Notes: generated by a model not told the origin, from the letters alone. A stretch of 64,000 nucleotides of DNA from an uncultured virus (IMG/VR IMGVR_UViG_2850711898_000002) (IMGVR_UViG_2850711898_000002), one strand, 5' to 3'; counted from the stretch's first letter, positions 3,211-54,160 are shown. Made by a program: numbers and translations.

Positions 3211-3287
3211 GCGACTATAGCTCAGTTGGTTAGAGCACCACCTTGACATGGTGGGGGTCACTGGTTCGAGTCCAGCTAGTCGCACCA
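3211..3287 (+). tRNA. tRNA-Val(GAC)
   Basis: 77-nt cloverleaf GCGACTA...TAGTCGC-ACCA, anticodon loop TTGACAT, T-loop GGTTCGAGTCC. Confidence 0.97.
3274..3287 (+). repeat. attL core AGCTAGTCGCACCA
   Basis: Identical 14-mer at 36792-36805. Confidence 0.9.
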
Positions 3288-3512: not shown

Positions 3513-4514
3513 ATGGCGACAATTATCAAGAATGGCAAGCGTTGGCGCGCACAAGTGCGCAAGTTTGGCGTGAGCAAATCAGCCACTTTTTTGACTCAAG
3601 CAGACGCAAAAAAATGGGCAGAAATGCTCGAAAAACAGCTCGAATCAGGAAAGTATAATGAAATCCCTGATATTACATTGGATGAACTGATTGATAAGTA
3701 TCTAAAAGAAGTCACTGTAACCAAGCGCGGGAAACGTGAAGAGCGGATAAGATTATTGCGTCTTTCTCGCACTCCGCTTGCAGCAATATCCTTACAAGAA
3801 ATAGGAAAAGCACATTTCCGTGAGTGGCAAAATCAACGATTAAAAGAAGTCTCTCCAGCAACAGTTTTGCGTGAACGTAGTTCGCTTTCAGCTCTGATGG
3901 CCAAAGCGATTGAATGGGATTTTATAACAGAAAACCCCCTAAAATATCTTGAGAAACCAAAAGCGCCAGCACCTAGAACTCGTCGATATGATGAACACGA
4001 AATTGAGCGTCTGATTTTTGTGTCAGGTTATGATGTCGAACATATTGAACCGCCAAAAACCTTACAAAATCGCACTGGCGCGGCATTTCTTTTTGCGATA
4101 GAAACAGCAATGAGAGCAGGGGAAATAGCAAGTTTAACTTGGAATAATATCAATTTTGAAAAGCGCACTGCCTTTTTGCCAATTACTAAAAATGGACATT
4201 CACGCACGGTGCCTCTTTCGGTAAAAGCAATAGAGATTTTACAACATCTTACTTCGGTAAAAACAGAAAGTGACCCGCGAGTATTCCAAATGGAAGCACG
4301 CCAACTGGATCACAACTTCCGCAAGCTCAAAAAGATGGCAGGACTTGAAAATGCCAATTTACATTTTCACGACACCCGCCGTGAAGCCTTAACCAGATTG
4401 GCAGAAAAAGTGGATGTAATGGTATTAGCCAAAATATCGGGCCATAGAGATCTCAGTATTCTGCAAAATACCTATTACGCACCTGATATGGCAGAAATTG
4501 CTCAACGGCTATAA
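3513..4514 (+). CDS. int: tyrosine integrase of prophage 1
   Basis: R(AMRAGE)-K(TKNG)-HxxR(HDTR)-H(GH)-Y catalytic set intact. Confidence 0.95.
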   Translation: MATIIKNGKRWRAQVRKFGVSKSATFLTQADAKKWAEMLEKQLESGKYNEIPDITLDELIDKYLKEVTVTKRGKREERIRLLRLSRTPLAAISLQEIGKAHFREWQNQRLKEVSPATVLRERSSLSALMAKAIEWDFITENPLKYLEKPKAPAPRTRRYDEHEIERLIFVSGYDVEHIEPPKTLQNRTGAAFLFAIETAMRAGEIASLTWNNINFEKRTAFLPITKNGHSRTVPLSVKAIEILQHLTSVKTESDPRVFQMEARQLDHNFRKLKKMAGLENANLHFHDTRREALTRLAEKVDVMVLAKISGHRDLSILQNTYYAPDMAEIAQRL

Positions 4515-37045: not shown

Positions 37046-38293
37046 ATGGCTGTATTAGTGAAACCATTAAGCATTACAGAAATCAATAATGCTAAAACTA
37101 AAGAGAAAGATTACTCACTGTCTGATGGTCAAGGTCTTTTCTTGCTCGTAAGAATGAATGGTTCGAAAATTTGGCGATTTCAATATTATAAACCAATTTC
37201 TAAAAAAAGAACTTTAATCAGTCTTGGTGTTTATCCTGAGATTTCATTGAAAGATGCTCGAGAGATTAGGGATTTATATCGTTCTTTGTTGGCGAAAAAT
37301 ATCGATCCGCAAGATTACCGTTTACAGCAAGAACAAAAAGCCATCCAAGAACGTCAATTTACCTTGACAGAAATGGGGAAGGAATGGCTATACCTAAAGA
37401 AAAATGAAGTTGATACTGGTCGATTAAAAGAAGTGACTTTTATTGATATTGGGAAACGGTTAGAACGTCACTTGTTTAAAGTGTTGGGGCATTATTCTAT
37501 TAGTGAGATTTCCGCTCCTCTTGCTATTGAGAAATTAAAGCCATTAGAACGAGCAGGAAAATTGGATACATTGCATCGTATTATTGGTTATTTAAACCAA
37601 ATAATGGTTTATTCGGTTAATAGAGGGGTAATTAATTATAATGCAACCGCAGATATAGGAAGGGTATTTATTCGACCAATAGCTGAAAATAACCCCACTA
37701 TTCGCCCAGAGCAATTACCTAAATTGTTTGAAGATTTGCAGAACAGTACCCTTGAAATTGAAACTCGTTGTGCATTAGAGCTACTACTGCTTACTGCGGG
37801 TCGGGCTGGGGCTATTACTCAATTAGAATGGGAAAATGTAGATTTCGAAAACAGCTTATTGAATATCCCTAAAGAAAAAATGAAGGGGCGACAGGGTAAA
37901 GTACAAGATTTTATCTTGCCATTATCCAAACAAGCTGTAACGATTTTGCGCTTGTTACAGAAATTGAATCGTTGCAATAGTAAGTTTGTTTTCCCTAGCA
38001 AAAAAAATCCAAGACAGCCTATATCGAAAGAGACACCAAACAAAGCTCTTGGACGGATCGGTTATAGGAATATTTTGACCGCACATGGTTTGCGATCTGT
38101 TTTTAGCACAGCTATGAATGAGGCCGAATTTAACAGTGAGATTATTGAGGTGTGCTTGGCACATTTTGAATATTCTTCCGTTCGTGGCACATACAATAAA
38201 GCAAAGTATATGTCACAACGGATCGAATATATGTAGTGGTGGGGGAATTTTGTAGAAGAGGCATCTGATGGGAAAGCATTAATGGGTTGCTAA
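37046..38293 (+). pseudogene. int: P4-type integrase with premature amber codon
   Basis: DGQGLFL arm domain, HGLR, LAH, Y; TAG at 38234-36 interrupts M*WWGNFV, frame continues to TAA 38293. Confidence 0.75.
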
Positions 38294-39438: not shown

Positions 39439-40267
39439 CTAAAACAAAAGGCGCTCACTTGGAACGCCTATTGGATTTGTTAAATATTGATTTACTGTCT
39501 TATAAATATCTACGATTAAATCTAATGGTATATTAGACCGCTCGTTATATGATTTTGAGAAATCCTGAAATCCCATAGTTGGAGGCAATTTATTGTTGCT
39601 CTTTAGTCTTAGGTTGATATTACTTTTAAAGCGGGTTGGTTTACGCAGTGGATAACCATAGCAATGGTAATGTGCCAGATTGTCAAACGGCATTGGAAAA
39701 TTCAAAATATCGTTAATATAATGCCAAATCTTACTGCTTGCTGGATTTTCTATTACGTAAACTTTCGGATTGTAACGTTTGATAATTTCTATTGTGTTAT
39801 AGATACAAAGCTCACCATTAATGCGGTTTAGGAAAGAGCGGTCATATTTAAATTGCACATGAGGTAAATCATAATCAGCTCGTCCTCGCACGGTAAATTT
39901 AGACAATTCACGATTCACTGCACCAGTTTCCTGTTTCCAACTTGCATTACCTCCCCACATCGCACTAGCTACTGACCAACTCTCACAAGATGGACTAGCT
40001 ATAATCAAATCAGGTTTTGGCAGTTTATCAAGCTCATCAAATAGCTTGTTATCGCCAAACATACGACCATAATCAGCCAGATTAAGATTGATAAAGTGAT
40101 TGTTTTTACACTCAATATCCATACCGATAGGGTATATTTTGACTGACTGACTGACTGACTGACTGACTGACTGACTGACTGACTGACTGACTGACTGACT
40201 GATTAAATAGCTCCGTACCTTGCGTATAGCAACCATTGCCACTATCAAATAAAGCCCATACAATCAT
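39439..40267 (-). CDS. phase-variable C5-cytosine DNA methyltransferase-like gene, out of frame (OFF)
   Basis: ATG 40267 gives MIVWALFDSGNG (motif I-like); PDLIIASPSC and VIENP lie in another frame beyond the repeat tract. Confidence 0.82.
40141..40200 (-). repeat. simple sequence repeat (AGTC)15
   Basis: 60 nt of perfect GACT units on + strand. Confidence 0.99.
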
Positions 40268-40623
40268 CTTTCCCTCTGTTTTAAGTCAATCACAGGCAAC
40301 ACAGGTACAAGTGGTTTTGCTGTTGTAACTGTTGTTGATGTGCTGCTGCGGCTTTCATTTATCCAGTCAAATAGTTCCTCCCACGAATCGTAGTCAAGTT
40401 TGAGGAATGGGTCATTTCGGTCACTTTCCCAGTGTTTCAGATGCTCATTAATATCGCGCGTAATTACCTCTCGAGTATTACTGCTTAACACGCTCCAGTA
40501 GGTTTTAACATCGTGAATAGTTTCGCTAACGATATAAGTATGTCGTGGCAAGCTGTATCGGACGTGACTAATTATTAAATCTTGGAGTTTATGCAGTGGG
40601 ATTTTGATGTTAATTTCATTCAT
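40264..40623 (-). CDS. phage hypothetical protein
   Basis: ATGA overlaps at both ends; VRYSLPRHTYIVSET pattern. Confidence 0.7.
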   Translation of the reverse strand: MNEINIKIPLHKLQDLIISHVRYSLPRHTYIVSETIHDVKTYWSVLSSNTREVITRDINEHLKHWESDRNDPFLKLDYDSWEELFDWINESRSSTSTTVTTAKPLVPVLPVIDLKQRER

Positions 40624-40856
40624 TTTCGTCCTCCTTTTTTCTTATGATGTTTAAAGTGCGGTCGATTTTCTCGGAGTTTTAAATTGTCCTGTCGGATTTG
40701 TTCTACTTTAATTCTTAGGCGGTCATTATCGCTTTCAAGCTCTTTAATGCGTCTTGATTTGGCAAGATTTTCATTGCCTAATTTTTCAAAATGATATTTA
40801 TTATTTTCGATTTCCTCTTTGAGGATTTTTCTAGCGAGAGATTTTAGTAGGTTCAT
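40620..40856 (-). CDS. coiled-coil hypothetical protein
   Basis: AGGA RBS, operon position. Confidence 0.65.
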   Translation of the reverse strand: MNLLKSLARKILKEEIENNKYHFEKLGNENLAKSRRIKELESDNDRLRIKVEQIRQDNLKLRENRPHFKHHKKKGGRK

Positions 40857-40951
40857 TGTTTTTCCTGATAATAAAAAAGCCCGCCTAAGCGAGCTGGGTT
40901 GAGGGCGATAAAAAAGCCACTGTAAAATACAATGGCTTTCTTAGATAATAC

Positions 40952-40980
40952 TTGATTTAATCGGTATACCGATTTATAAT
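40952..40980 (+). promoter_or_regulatory. sigma70 promoter with palindromic operator
   Basis: TTGATT-N17-TATAAT; perfect palindrome AATCGGTATACCGATT in spacer. Confidence 0.8.
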
Positions 40981-40983
40981 AAT

Positions 40984-41154
40984 CTCACTTTCAAGGGGAT
41001 GCTTGAAAGTGAGCGTGTGGCTTAATCCCACGTTACGAAGAAGGAAAATAAAATGTTAGTTCGCATTTTCCTTATCGTTGTCTTACTACTAATTAGCTTT
41101 CCTGCTTATTAATAGGTAACGATAATCTGGGGGAAGTACCAGTTCCCCCAGTTC
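40984..41154 (-). ncRNA. Sib-like antisense antitoxin RNA (ends approximate)
   Basis: Minus-strand TTGACA(41189-84)-N17-CATAAT(41166-61); hairpins at 41127-41151 and 40984-41013; spans toxin ORF. Confidence 0.65.
41053..41112 (+). CDS. ibs: Ibs-family type I toxin (19 aa, not in ORF track)
   Basis: MLVRIFLIVVLLLISFPAY, AAGGA RBS; matches Ibs LLLISFxAY C-terminus. Confidence 0.85.
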   Translation: MLVRIFLIVVLLLISFPAY

Positions 41155-41176
41155 TTCAAAATTATGGGCTATAAAG

Positions 41177-41356
41177 ATGAAATTGTCAATCAACGAAATT
41201 AAAGCGCGTTCAGATGAAAAACGCGGTGTAAAATCGAAATCTTACAAGTTGCCATTAGCAACCATCGCTGAAATTGAACAACTCAGTAAACAACACGACA
41301 TTCCACAAAACCAACTGATTATTCAGGCGGTTGAATTGTGGAAGCAATCTCGTTAA
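41177..41356 (+). CDS. 59-aa ribbon-helix-helix-like DNA-binding protein (not in ORF track)
   Basis: MKLSINEIKARSDEKRGVKSKSYKLPLATIAEIEQLSKQHDIPQNQLIIQAVELWKQSR. Confidence 0.65.
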   Translation: MKLSINEIKARSDEKRGVKSKSYKLPLATIAEIEQLSKQHDIPQNQLIIQAVELWKQSR

Positions 41357-41415
41357 ATGAAGCCTCTATTTACGGATTTGATTTTTTCAGGGGGTTATAC
41401 AAGCTATCTTTCCCT

Positions 41416-46281: not shown

Positions 46282-47190
46282 TTATTGAAGAGCCTCGATC
46301 AATTTAGTTGCGGTTTCTTTCCCTTGAGGTAATAACATTGTTTTCTTCAAAATATAATTCGGGAATTTTTCTTTTAAATAGGTGCCTTTAAACCATTTTC
46401 TAAATTCACCCAAACTGGAATCGGGGTATGCATTTATTTGTTGTGGATTTGAACCTGATTGTAGAAATTCTTCAGGATAAAAGTGAGAGCATTTTTGAAA
46501 TTTGCCGTATCGATTGGATAATTGGTTATCTTTCCAATATTTAGCCCACGCCAGCCCTACACTAATATCTGGCACGGTATGTTGGTTTACAATTAAACCT
46601 ACGTTAATAAGATCTACCATCATACCAGCAATCTCATTAAATACAATAAAATGACCATCAGGTACCGTTCCCATATTTTTCAATAATGAAACTCTATTGT
46701 GATAATGTCGCCACGGATCGTCAGGTTTGTAACCTGTGTAACGATATATATACTCTTTTAATCCATGTGCAGCTAATTCTCTATACGAGCGCTGAGCAAT
46801 GGTTTTATCTACTTTTGATGATTCAAACGCATAAAATTCAAGTATTGCCATACAGACAATATCAGGGTAAGCGTAGTGTATTTGCCCATTTTTTTCTACT
46901 TGAATATATAGTGATTCATCATTAAACCCTTTATTAAATAGATAAGAACTTAAAAATTTCATTCTATTTGTAGTAAATAAACCGCCTTGTATGGAAGATG
47001 ACCATTCCGCAGATAATTCTTGCAATGTGATACGAGAAATATCGCACACTTTAGCTAATCCGCTTTGGGTTAGGTAAGGGATCCCGTTTCCTAGAACCCC
47101 CATTCCGACACCATTAATTTCTGTCTCTTTTTCAATGGAAATATCTAGTACCCCTTGACGTAGGGACGTAGGTAAATTGTTATTATTCAT
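46282..47190 (-). CDS. BstA-like prophage defence protein
   Basis: ~300 aa, downstream of cI; GMGVLGNGIPYLTQSGLAKVC and VPDISVGLAW motifs recalled for BstA homologues. Confidence 0.7.
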   Translation of the reverse strand: MNNNNLPTSLRQGVLDISIEKETEINGVGMGVLGNGIPYLTQSGLAKVCDISRITLQELSAEWSSSIQGGLFTTNRMKFLSSYLFNKGFNDESLYIQVEKNGQIHYAYPDIVCMAILEFYAFESSKVDKTIAQRSYRELAAHGLKEYIYRYTGYKPDDPWRHYHNRVSLLKNMGTVPDGHFIVFNEIAGMMVDLINVGLIVNQHTVPDISVGLAWAKYWKDNQLSNRYGKFQKCSHFYPEEFLQSGSNPQQINAYPDSSLGEFRKWFKGTYLKEKFPNYILKKTMLLPQGKETATKLIEALQ

Positions 47191-49471: not shown

Positions 49472-50226
49472 GTATGCGATTAATGGTTCAAGCAATGAAT
49501 TGTAAGGTTGGTAATCCTGCTAGAAAACTTGTGCTTTTAAAACTCGCTGATAATGCCAATGATGATGGAATTTGTTTTCCAAGTTATCAATACATTGCCG
49601 ATAAATGCGAGATGACCCGACGTAGTGCAATCAATCACATTGAATATTTAATCAAAATGGGATTAGTAAGCAAAAAAGAACGTAAAAATAAAGATGGTTC
49701 CATCTCAAATTTATACTTTTTACACCTTGAACAAGGTAGTGAAAATTTTGCACTGGGTAGTGAAAATATTTCACTAGGTAGTGAAAATTTTGCACTAGGG
49801 GGTAGTGAAAATATTTCACCCAGAACCAGTCACTCTTTAGAACCAGTCAATGAACCTAAAAAAACTACGCAAAAAAGCGAATCCGAAATGTTGCTTGAGC
49901 AGTTCGGTATTACCGGACAACTGGCGAAAGATTTTATCGCACACCGCAAAGCCAAAAAGGGCGTAATTAATCAAACACAGCTAAACCGTCTGCAAAAACA
50001 GGCGGACAAAGCGGGGATTTCGATTTGTGAAGCGGTGGAGATTTGCATTGAACGCAACTGGCAGGGATTTAACGCATCGTGGGATTGGCGTGATGAGAAA
50101 CTGCGACCAAATTTACCGCACTTAGGGCAATCACACCCCAACAAACCCAAATTTGACGATACGCAGACAGGCTGGTCTGCAGGAATGAATTTCACAGTGG
50201 ACGGTACGCAATGGCAAATTCCATAA
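49468..50226 (+). CDS. replication initiator (O-like, HTH)
   Basis: KLVLLKLADNANDDG.CFPS, internal iterons. Confidence 0.88.
   Translation: MSMRLMVQAMNCKVGNPARKLVLLKLADNANDDGICFPSYQYIADKCEMTRRSAINHIEYLIKMGLVSKKERKNKDGSISNLYFLHLEQGSENFALGSENISLGSENFALGGSENISPRTSHSLEPVNEPKKTTQKSESEMLLEQFGITGQLAKDFIAHRKAKKGVINQTQLNRLQKQADKAGISICEAVEICIERNWQGFNASWDWRDEKLRPNLPHLGQSHPNKPKFDDTQTGWSAGMNFTVDGTQWQIP
49735..49820 (+). repeat. replication origin iterons, 4 x ~21 bp
   Basis: GGTAGTGAAAAT(T/A)TT(G/T)CAC at 49735, 49756, 49777, 49801. Confidence 0.9.
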
Positions 50227-50852
50227 CAGAAAACCAAATTAACACGCTCCCGCCAGAACGAGCACAGCGTGCGGAAGAGACGATTAACTGGCTCTTTAAC
50301 GAGCTTAAATCGATTTTTCCTGGTTGGCGTGCAGCCTTTGAAACCGAAACGGATTATCTCTCTGCTAAAAAAACTTGGTTGCGTGTGTTGGCACGAGAAA
50401 AAATTACGAGACCTCAGTTAGAGAACGGGCTTTGTGAAGCGGAAAAATCGCTTGATAAATTTTTACCTAGCGTAGGGTTGTTTGTTTATTGGTGCAAAGC
50501 CTACGACTATCACGCACTGGGTTTACCGAACGAAGCGGAATTATACCAACGTTATAACACTTTCTTAGGCTATGCCCGATTCAATCGGGATGAATTTCAA
50601 TATCGTTCAAAAGTGGAATTTTGGTTGCTTAAAAATCTGTACGAAAAGTGCAAGAAAAAATCGGAAGAGGACACGTTGAAAACTATTCCGAAATTACTCA
50701 CAGAAGCGGTAGAAAAAGTGCGGTCGAATACTCCTTTTGAGGATGTTCCGAAAATGATTCCTGAAAAGCCAAGTTTTTACGATAAAGCGAAGGCTGATAA
50801 GGCACGCGATAGCTTGATGGCAATGATGAAAGGGAAGAGAGCATTGCAATGA
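50211..50852 (+). CDS. replication protein P-like helicase loader
   Basis: LKSIFPGW, FLPSVGLFVYWC. Confidence 0.82.
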   Translation: MANSITENQINTLPPERAQRAEETINWLFNELKSIFPGWRAAFETETDYLSAKKTWLRVLAREKITRPQLENGLCEAEKSLDKFLPSVGLFVYWCKAYDYHALGLPNEAELYQRYNTFLGYARFNRDEFQYRSKVEFWLLKNLYEKCKKKSEEDTLKTIPKLLTEAVEKVRSNTPFEDVPKMIPEKPSFYDKAKADKARDSLMAMMKGKRALQ

Positions 50853-51430
50853 CAGAACAACAATTTGATAAAGATACATGGCAAACACCGTGCTATGTAT
50901 TTGAATGGCTATCTCAACGTTTCGGCTGGTTCGATCTTGATGGTTGCGCTACAGCCAACAACGCCTTGACATGGCGATATATCGGCGAGCCTAACTCAGA
51001 TAATGATGAGCATCAATCAATCGCAGATGACTTTCTAATGCCGATTGAGCAAATGTTAGATGTATTGTTGGATGAAGTCGCAGAACGTTGTTCGGCTCCG
51101 TTAAGAATCTATGTGAATCCACCTTATTCCAACGTTACACCATATCTACAACGCACAAAAGAATTATGTGATGCCGGTTATTTGGTCGTGATGTTACTCA
51201 ACAATGATAAATCTACTCAATGGTATCAAAACCATATTCAAGGCGTGGCGAATGAAGTGATTGATATTACAGGTGGTCGAATTGCATTTATCAACCCTGT
51301 AACAGGAAAGGAAATCAAGGGGAATAGCAAAGGGCAAATGGTCGTAGTATTTGATCCAACAATGGAAGACTTTGTCACACGTTCAGTAAGTCTTGATTTT
51401 ATTAAAAAGTTCGGTGGATATGGAATTTAA
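50849..51430 (+). CDS. phage N6-adenine methyltransferase (Dam-type)
   Basis: DTWQTP, FDLD, NPPYS, GRIAF. Confidence 0.9.
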   Translation: MTEQQFDKDTWQTPCYVFEWLSQRFGWFDLDGCATANNALTWRYIGEPNSDNDEHQSIADDFLMPIEQMLDVLLDEVAERCSAPLRIYVNPPYSNVTPYLQRTKELCDAGYLVVMLLNNDKSTQWYQNHIQGVANEVIDITGGRIAFINPVTGKEIKGNSKGQMVVVFDPTMEDFVTRSVSLDFIKKFGGYGI

Positions 51431-52847: not shown

Positions 52848-53012
52848 ATAAATCTAAATCAGATCTATATAGATTTTTTATTTGAGAATTTGATAGGGCA
52901 TCCTGAATTTGAGATGTAGATCACAAAATTAGAAAAAACTTTGATTAAAAACTTAAAGAATTATTTTTTATTCCATAGAATGAATGCAAAATTTATTCTA
53001 GAGGAAATAAAA

Positions 53013-54160
53013 ATGAGCGATCAAATTTTCAAAGAAAAAATATTATCTCACTCTCAACATGTAATTAGAGTAGGGCAACACTGTTCAACTGAAGAAACAA
53101 CAAAGCAAGCTTTAATTCTTCCATTTCTTGATATTTTAGGCTTTTCGGCTTATGACCCTACTAAAGTAAAAGCTGAGTACGCTGCCGATTTTGCTGGAGC
53201 AAAGAATGGTGAACGGGTAGATTATGCCTTATTTTGTCATGATGTTCCCGTTATGTTTATTGAGGCTAAATCTTACAATGAAGATCTCTCAAACCATTCT
53301 CCACAATTAGCACGCTATTTCAATGCAACTCCAGAAGTTGCAGTTGCAGCAATTAGTAATGGTCGTGAATGGCGATTTTTCACAGATCTAAAAGATAAAA
53401 ATATTATGGATGATGTGCCATTTTTGCGCATTAATTTTGAATCGCTTGACGAAACCAAAATATTCCAATTATCTCAATTTTGTCATGATAAATTTCAGCC
53501 TGAAGCGTTACGAACATTGGCTGAAGAAAGTATCTATCAACATTTACAAAAACAATATCTTCGTCATTAAAAGAGGTTGATTGTGAGTTTGTCCGTTATA
53601 TAGCTAGCCGTTCCAATATTGGAAGACAGTTGAATCAGCGGTTTATTGAATCTATAACACCAATAGTAAGACAAGCAGTTGAAAAGGCTGTTAGTGATAT
53701 GGTTGTTTCTGGATTATCAAAAAAACCTATTGATATAGAACCTGTTGAGGTTACTGAGGTGGAATATAATGATGAAAAAGCAGACGTTGTAGATCCTGAT
53801 AACTGTAAAATTGTCACCACATATACCGAAAGACAAGTTTTAGAGTATGTCACAATGATTATTGGTAGCGATACAGATTTAGTTGCCAAAGATACCGAGA
53901 GTTATTTTGGTATTTTATATCAAGGAAAATCTAATAGATGGATTTTACGTTACTATGATAATAAGCAACGCCCTTCAATCGTTATCCCTATTGACTTAAC
54001 TCCTGAGCATCAAAAAGAAATTATTAGAGCTGGGTTAGAGATTTCAGGCAACCAAATTATTATTGATTACCCAGAGAATATTTTAAGATTAAGTGGCATT
54101 ATTCGTGATTGTTTCGAGTATTGCATTAATGACGAAAATTTTAGAAAAAAATCGCAATAA
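53013..54160 (+). pseudogene. HsdR_N-like PD-(D/E)xK nuclease-domain gene, frameshifted at ~53535
   Basis: EETTKQALILPF, VDYA, IEAK, SNGREWRFF; second half continues in -1 frame. Confidence 0.75.

Follow-up and report, generated by a model that had tools for sequence, protein, structure and literature searches.

Simple repeats inside coding sequences can switch genes ON and OFF, a principle that is known already, and several described systems resemble in one respect or another the gene analysed here: a solitary methyltransferase gene of C5-cytosine type, interrupted by an (AGTC)15 tract, which lies on the minus strand of a 64,000-nucleotide stretch from an uncultured virus (IMG/VR IMGVR_UViG_2850711898_000002), referred to at its full length as the window. 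On the phage side, neuO of the Escherichia coli K1 prophage CUS-3 is the classic 'mobile contingency locus', in which heptanucleotide units control a capsule O-acetyltransferase. Like the window gene, neuO uses a simple repeat in its 5' coding region as an ON/OFF switch on a temperate phage, but it acts on the host surface and not on DNA. Among chromosomal genes, modA of Haemophilus influenzae shares with the window gene the host species, the 5' coding tract and switching by translational frameshift, and the AGTC/TGAC repeat unit is tabulated for the mod gene of strain Rd (PMC2651432). modA encodes an N6-adenine type III enzyme with a res partner that is expressed in growing cells, whereas the window gene encodes an orphan C5-type enzyme of about 260 amino acids (aa), is situated in a prophage early operon and has no nuclease partner. 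In the accessible part of the same survey, which covers 16 H. influenzae genomes, AGTC/TGAC tracts are reported only in mod and in a glycosyltransferase gene near lpt3, and the 28 tetranucleotide loci tabulated there include no prophage C5 methylase (PMC2651432).

Two further systems show that phase-variable methylases are not confined to chromosomal type III adenine enzymes, the frame in which an earlier reading of the window, made from the sequence alone (hereafter the sequence-only reading), had placed them too narrowly. The first is hpyAVIBM of Helicobacter pylori, which according to the available text encodes an orphan C5 enzyme and, as in the window gene, has its frame shifted by a simple repeat within the open reading frame (ORF) (PMC3411764). 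Unlike the window gene it is chromosomal, has 4-5 AG dinucleotide units and is not phage-borne; substitutions that shorten its repeat and stabilise the gene (PMC3411764) resemble the degenerate relics of the prophage family described below. The second, M.Btr192IV of Bibersteinia trehalosi prophages, is a Hia5-like promiscuous N6-adenine methylase with 12 CAAG units beginning 63 bp past the start codon; it is not expressed in the native host, and its authors call the significance of the repeat unclear (PMC4996451). As far as the accessible portion of that report goes, M.Btr192IV is the nearest precedent, both genes being orphan methylases of Pasteurellaceae prophages with a tetranucleotide tract some 63-67 nucleotides (nt) into the ORF. 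It differs from the window gene in belonging to another enzyme family with N6-adenine specificity, and neither an allele series nor recurrence at one site is reported in that portion (PMC4996451).

Canonical prophage C5 methyltransferases, such as the enzymes of 388 and 424 aa in two related genomes (G002 and G001) and the CP-933R enzyme (3g7u), are about 130-160 aa longer than the window gene product, possess a target-recognition domain and carry the motifs GTPCQAFS and ENVPG; unlike the window gene, the two canonical genes examined have no repeat tract. The available part of a 2026 review mentions the prophage methylase PamA and no phase-variable phage methylase (PMC13076061), and the Hia5/Hin1523 paper makes no mention of repeat, tetranucleotide, phase, frameshift or slippage (PMC3299994). 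In the openly readable main texts, subscription papers and supplements apart, we found no description of a repeat-switched prophage C5 methylase. What appears to be new is thus not the principle, but the minimal C5 family, the setting in a phage of H. influenzae, the four kinds of repeat at one loop and the series of slippery and locked alleles. Phase-variable methylases have been studied as chromosomal regulators or defence genes of host-adapted pathogens; a phage-borne orphan C5 switch would extend this logic to the phage side and would give H. influenzae one more phase-variable locus, mobile and as yet uncatalogued.

The switch locus consists of the following elements:

39439..40267, minus strand: whole methyltransferase gene, 829 nt from ATG to stop, out of frame across the tract
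40201..40267, minus strand: 5' segment with the start codon, 22 codons and motif I (FDSGNG, the S-adenosylmethionine (SAM)-binding loop), matching phrog_2882 positions 4-27 (E 4e-5)
40141..40200, minus strand: perfect (AGTC)15 tetranucleotide tract, without a stop in any of the strand's three frames
40112..40114, minus strand: stop codon for the ATG frame at 15 units, closing ORF 40112..40267 (51 aa)
39439..40140, minus strand: post-tract frame of 233 codons and a stop, with motif IV (SPSC), motif VI (IENP) and a C-terminal SNIP block, matching phrog_2882 (E 6e-98)
39988..39990, minus strand: TCT (Ser) codon in place of the Pro of the relatives' catalytic Pro-Cys (153 readable sequences compared)
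40120..40122, minus strand: internal ATG, start of an annotated 227-aa product without motif I
40271..40276, minus strand: GAGGGA ribosome-binding site 5' of the methylase ATG
40264..40623, minus strand: 119-aa ORF upstream of the methylase (phrog_11947, function unassigned in the family)

The sequence-only reading had described a start codon overlapping the upstream stop, 22 codons leading into 15 perfect AGTC units, a stop at 40112 and a catalytic portion in another frame, and each of these features was recovered. In the minus-strand reading and the ORF list, the ATG (40267-40265) overlaps the TGA (40266-40264) of the 119-aa ORF as ATGA, with GAGGGA in front of it. The ATG frame encodes MIVWALFDSGNGCYTQGTELFN, then runs through the tract and ends at 40114-40112, whereas PDLIIASPSC and VIENP belong to the frame of ORF 39439..40263. 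Tandem Repeats Finder reports period 4, 15.8 copies and 100% matches at 40140-40202, and a regular-expression search gives the 15 perfect units at 40141-40200. This tract is the sole perfect repeat with at least five units (period 2-8) in the window, which also contains no homopolymer of at least 10 A/T or at least 8 G/C. Since the distance from ATG to stop is 829 nt, the gene, with the flanks found in the window, is whole at unit numbers equal to 2 mod 3 (8, 11, 14, 17). The tract is thus a long perfect repeat inside the coding region with a unit length not divisible by three, and in its present 15-unit state the gene is OFF, yielding a 51-aa peptide. The annotation of the window genome gives only a 227-aa product (P0196), called from the internal Met. 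A TTG at 40263 was considered as the start of a functional 274-aa isoform in the 15-unit state and rejected, as its frame has unrelated residues instead of motif I.

Profile matches confirm that the two pieces form one gene, because they are split on either side of the tract: in phrog_2882 ('DNA methyltransferase', 262 positions) the 51-aa peptide covers positions 4-27 and the 233 post-tract residues positions 29-251, so that the tract stands as an insertion between positions 27 and 29. Motif I lies in the ATG frame, and its residues D8, S9, G10, N11 and G12 show no variation among the 25 aligned relatives. When a profile of these 25 relatives is set against M.HaeIII, motif IV (LPKPDLIIASPPCESWS) falls on PPCQSWS and motif VI, IENP, on AENV, with E160, N161 and P162 invariant. 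Two intact relatives, P0002 and P0185, reach 26.8 and 26.6 bits with the C5 methylase family PF00145, above its cut-off of 22. An AlphaFold model of a 91%-identical relative (predicted local distance difference test score, pLDDT, 75.2; predicted template modelling score, pTM, 0.78) is predicted to have the catalytic-domain fold of C5-cytosine methyltransferases (Dnmt fold); Foldseek returned 33 matches at E<=1e-3, and all listed rows at that threshold are C5-cytosine methyltransferases, with 8yf3, a C5-carboxymethyltransferase, also a close structural match. About 186 residues of the family align across M.HhaI 12-326, and the models contain a 45-aa low-confidence insert after motif IV. By sequence and model comparison the gene product is a C5-methyltransferase-type enzyme of unusual minimal build, for which 5-methylcytosine (5mC) as product and a target are predicted at most.

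In the model the AGTC tract falls in the loop between the SAM-binding helix, which follows motif I, and strand beta-2. In the modelled ON protein of a natural 14-unit allele, the repeat-coded residues 23-41 form a helix extension and a low-confidence coil, and strand beta-2 and the remaining fold are predicted to be unchanged relative to a 262-aa model (same pLDDT and pTM in both). In order to follow this site among relatives, we compared 160 loci, namely the best 80 of 104 relatives in species genomes and the best 80 of at least 300 in viral contigs, and searched their first 900 nt for perfect repeats. Such a repeat is present in 9 of the 160, all of them of Pasteurellaceae type and all 50-72 nt past the start codon; over the same 900 nt, no perfect repeat was found elsewhere in the gene or in Streptococcus-type loci. 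A pattern search with four AGTC units and the 3' flank added nine further records, and a profile search of 236 Pasteurellaceae species genomes, which found the gene in 20 of them, from 17 of 50 genera, added three more informative loci. The sequence-only reading had proposed that repeat lengths be compared across homologues, and they do vary between strains, at 6, 8, 13, 14 and 15 units:

AGTC, 15 units: OFF; the window
AGTC, 14 units: ON, 274 aa, with PPC intact and 95.9% identity to the window in the post-tract DNA; L178 (from G016, a complete genome of the same genus)
AGTC, 13 units: OFF; L098 (= L167) and L170
AGTC, 8 units: ON, 266 aa; L169, L173 and L175
AGTC, 8 units: frame ON at the tract, ORF broken later; L172
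AGTC, 6 units: ON, with a different 5' flank; L096 (= L168)
AGTC, at least 13 and at least 7 units, ended by contig ends: L171 and L174

The number of units toggles the ORF: 8 and 14 units give proteins of 266 and 274 aa, and 13 and 15 units lead to a stop after 46 and 51 aa. The prediction that the window gene is OFF and that 14 units would restore a full ORF is thereby borne out by a natural allele. The 14-unit ON protein ends in 227 residues that match P0195 exactly, a 227-aa product from an internal Met that is called on 35 H. influenzae contigs, and we infer from this identity that P0195 is probably the same allele annotated in the OFF phase. If so, annotators would have to read the 227-aa 'DNA methyltransferase' products called in many genomes of H. 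influenzae as OFF-phase fragments.

The same loop holds other repeats as well. (TCAA)15 is found in one locus, in the OFF state (L009); (TGCAA)3-7 occurs in six loci, one ON and five OFF (L007, L097, L100, L101, L104, L105); and 8-nt units occur in two, both ON, as (AATCAGTC)x4 in L176 and (TCGGTCAG)x5 in L177. Many close alleles (L087-L095) contain degenerate in-frame relics of a tract, for example AGTC-GATC-AGTC-GGTC-AGTC in L091, and in the 274-aa P0185 the relic is exactly as long as 14 units. A tree of 28 post-loop proteins (rows L009, L014, L024, L069 and L102 dropped) places all alleles with the AGTC site in one supported clade of 16 rows, in which perfect tracts are mixed with relics, and four of the six TGCAA alleles form its sister clade. 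Loci with a repeat are flanked by early or integration genes of prophages, among them SSB, Sak, MazG, integrase and a second methylase.

A few observations on the wider family may be added here. In L115 and in proteins P0022 and P0024, a frameshift just past motif IV leads to 182-aa calls that start with MRVGRLQVRCGGGNASW (P0024 on 11 contigs), so that the gene may have another site at which it breaks recurrently. One Avibacterium paragallinarum genome (G054) contains five identical repeat-free homologues (L192, L196 and L198-L200, equal to L057-L061, of L054 type), which presumably sit in five related prophages. The methylase DNA at 39928-40142 (query positions 559-773) is 76-80% identical to 'C5 methylase' genes of Streptococcus and Enterococcus phages, and full-length protein identity is about 60%, which hints that phages of Gram-positive hosts and phages of Pasteurellaceae, whose hosts live together in the upper airway and mouth, have exchanged this DNA fairly recently. 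In INPHARED, 87 records matched at 60-80% identity over part of the gene, from Streptococcus, Enterococcus and two enterobacterial phages, and no Haemophilus phage with the gene was found. An exact 31-nt search of genome contigs with the 5' segment gave no match.

Given these comparisons, we consider it likely that the locus is a slipped-strand ON/OFF switch in an orphan, small C5-type methyltransferase gene in the early-left arm of a Haemophilus influenzae/haemolyticus lambdoid prophage. A number of points weigh against this reading. No heterogeneity of tract length was seen at the level of reads: of the raw-read runs, X21 lacks the gene and X22 has another cassette in its place. Unit counts from short-read assemblies may be collapsed, and a collapse at k=31 gives 32 nt, that is, 8 units. 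In the PF00145 search suggested by the sequence-only reading, the intact relatives exceed the cut-off of 22 bits, but the window fragments themselves score 20.5 and 19.9 and match over only about 36 residues around motif IV. Family members, at 255-263 aa, are shorter than M.HaeIII and M.HhaI (324-330 aa), a separate target-recognition domain was not recognised in them, and the literature searched yielded no methylation or methylome data for any family member. The serine in motif IV of the window stands alone: among the 153 readable sequences PS occurs only there, with PPC in 151 and PLC in one. Five relatives (L010, L086, L102, L115, L172) are broken elsewhere in the gene, so that plain decay also occurs in the family. 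Finally, the timing of expression is a prediction drawn from gene order and translational coupling.

One alternative is that the tract, or its length, is misassembled and the gene really intact. Perfect repeats can be collapsed or mis-sized by short-read assemblers, and the Logan contigs of the probable source run, X1, do break at the tract. The k=31 contigs of X1 and of X2, a run from another study, both end on either side of it, as they must at that k, and we count this shared break in favour of the switch. Nevertheless, we regard such an artefact as very improbable. The window stems from a genome in one contig of 2.04 Mb, the counts of both 14 and 15 units were made in single-contig genomes, and independent records carry tracts at the same place. 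An error of one unit is possible and would alter the present state only, not the nature of the locus.

A different explanation is that the methylase is a pseudogene in this prophage, its long tract being a neutral microsatellite expansion in dead DNA. The OFF state coincides with a substitution at a near-invariant catalytic proline, the annotation gives only the truncated 227-aa product, and the stops and frameshifts elsewhere in other relatives would fit the same picture. The sequence-only reading had noted that motif IV reads SPSC and that the allele may be impaired, and the substitution is both real and unusual: the cysteine is kept, and proline is replaced by serine through CCT -> TCT at 39990-39988, so that the window allele departs from the catalytic Pro-Cys, whereas Pro-Pro-Cys is invariant in 25 of 25 aligned relatives. 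The scan of motif IV comprised 161 sequences, namely the 160 loci and the window, of which 8 loci were unmatched by the search pattern. In run X2, from another study, a single other base differs across the gene and the base at the Ser codon is the same; this second isolate shares SPSC, which accordingly belongs to the lineage and does not stem from an error of sequencing, and it has the OFF tract as well. The SPSC allele may be weakened even when ON.

Against decay stands the state of the remaining coding sequence. The 232-codon post-tract frame is open in 11 of 11 alleles compared, including every OFF allele examined, and the ratio of nonsynonymous to synonymous substitution (dN/dS) relative to the window is 0.05-0.12 in 10 alleles, a rough figure since dS exceeds 1 in 7 of the 10 comparisons. 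Judged from these values, the downstream frame is under purifying selection. In addition, the near-identical 14-unit allele is ON with its PPC intact, the four kinds of repeat are all confined, within the gene, to one recurrent loop position, and the relics are always in frame. On the comparative evidence a maintained reversible frame switch fits better than decay, which we hold to be improbable as an account of this locus.

The claim that the gene is prophage-borne is well founded, as integrase, cI, O/P and terminase genes are all present. Chromosomal genes in the window are of H. influenzae/haemolyticus type, for example a pyruvate kinase identical to named entries, and a lambdoid prophage extends from 37046 rightwards, beginning with its integrase. 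On the minus strand there follow an excisionase-like ORF, small ORFs, the methylase, the 119-aa and a 78-aa ORF, SSB, an exonuclease, an anti-repressor, a BstA-type gene and cI; the rightward arm holds cII-like, O, P, Dam-type methylase, NinB, NinG, lysis, terminase and portal genes. The elements relevant to the methylase and its expression are these:

37046..38236, plus strand: integrase of the lambdoid prophage (phrog_1, E 9e-55)
39449..39469, minus strand: terminator-like hairpin and T run over the methylase 3' end, also a mosaic boundary
40878..40895, minus strand: terminator-like hairpin just upstream of the 78-aa/119-aa/methylase group
50849..51430, plus strand: second orphan methylase of the lambdoid prophage, Dam-type N6-adenine, without repeat tract (PF05869, E 1e-32)

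Among the neighbouring ORFs scanned, no match to a nuclease or restriction-system family was found, and the methylase is therefore an orphan, as the sequence-only reading had it when calling the gene solitary. In the two nearest relatives, G001 and G002, the 119-aa ORF is followed by the canonical C5 methylase of 424 and 388 aa, respectively, and the raw reads of run X22 match solely the borders of this position, 39441-39487 and 40287-40660. Both results point to an exchangeable 'methylase slot'.

How such a switch might work can be outlined as follows. Slippage during replication, which we infer to take place in vivo, would add or remove 4-nt units; only lengths of 2 mod 3 would join motif I to the catalytic part, and all others would give a peptide of 46-51 aa, with re-initiation at the internal Met producing at most a presumably inactive protein without the SAM loop. 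Because the prophage replicates with its host, a population of lysogens would come to hold ON and OFF prophages. With the early-left operon of lysogens presumably silenced by cI, the phase would be free to drift at no cost and would show itself only upon induction. The enzyme would most likely be made when the early-left operon is expressed after induction, and cytosine methylation of phage (and host) DNA could then make the bursts from different cells differ in their modification. In this way the phage could hedge between restriction that methylation would block and the costs or defences that methylation would trigger, the OFF state being of advantage where methyl-dependent nucleases, or a mutagenic or toxic cost of broad C5 methylation, are avoided. 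The 5mC activity, its target and the selective benefit are predictions in this scheme. Of the 20 species genomes searched in the genus, none has McrBC (PF10117) and four have the Mrr catalytic domain (PF04471), which neither supports nor excludes methyl-dependent restriction.

On a broader scale, we tentatively suggest, as a possibility that goes well beyond the switch itself, that contingency switches in the style of the host have arisen more than once in temperate Pasteurellaceae phages, at a single surface loop of a minimal C5 methyltransferase (AGTC, TCAA, TGCAA and 8-nt units). Alleles might cycle between slippery tracts and point-mutated, locked-ON relics, and the switch might diversify an epigenetic mark on phage DNA across lysogens, as a bet-hedge on the side of the phage. 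The natural series of slippery ON, slippery OFF and locked ON alleles is suited to testing both the methylation by a C5 enzyme poor in target-recognition domain and the payoff of mixed bursts.

If the methylase were instead expressed in the lysogen from its own promoter, in the manner of a moron, switching would alter the methylome and gene expression of the host, and the repeat-switched gene would amount to a horizontally mobile phasevarion. The 78-aa/119-aa/methylase group is indeed bracketed by terminator-like hairpins (40895-40878 and 39469-39449), a near-consensus promoter-like site (TTGACA-17-CATAAT, 11/12) lies at 41189-41161 on the same strand, and the cassette is exchanged as a module between prophages; host traits are altered by the prophage methylase PamA of Staphylococcus aureus, according to the available text of the review (PMC13076061). 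The region has more terminator-like sites than its shuffled versions (11 against 2.0 +/- 1.5), but promoter-like sites are no commoner than in shuffled sequence (14 against 12.2 +/- 4.1), and three terminator-like hairpins separate the promoter-like site from the first gene. The methylase is, moreover, translationally coupled to an early-left phage ORF, and the Bibersteinia prophage methylases are judged inactive in their native host in the accessible portion of their report (PMC4996451). Phasevarions involve the methylase of a type III or type I restriction-modification system, whereas the window gene is of C5 type with no nuclease match nearby. For these reasons we find expression in the lysogen unlikely, and prefer the switch that is read out after induction.

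The gap in the leftward operon at 40857-41415 deserves mention in its own right. It comprises the promoter-like site at 41189-41161 (minus strand), the three terminator-like hairpins and a 59-aa ORF on the opposite strand (41177-41356) without family match, and may be a small independent unit. Further to the right, a BstA-type abortive-infection gene (46282-47190; phrog_6287, E 2e-111) adjoins cI, at the position of rexAB in lambda, and four 21-bp tandem repeats at 49735-49819, within the replication O-like gene, are likely origin iterons. ORFs 52941-53570 and 53630-54160 match phrog_4225 (phage endonuclease) at positions 3-180 and 203-357; as they represent its N- and C-terminal halves, the endonuclease gene is split or broken, with no repeat visible at the junction. 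Directly left of the lambdoid integrase lies a complete P2/HP1-like prophage (3211-36371), so that two prophages stand in tandem. It begins with tRNA-Val (3211-3287) and integrase (3513-4514), followed by MazG, an origin-nicking replication protein and a cI-like repressor, and its remaining genes encode tail proteins, sheath, tape measure, capsid, terminase and portal.

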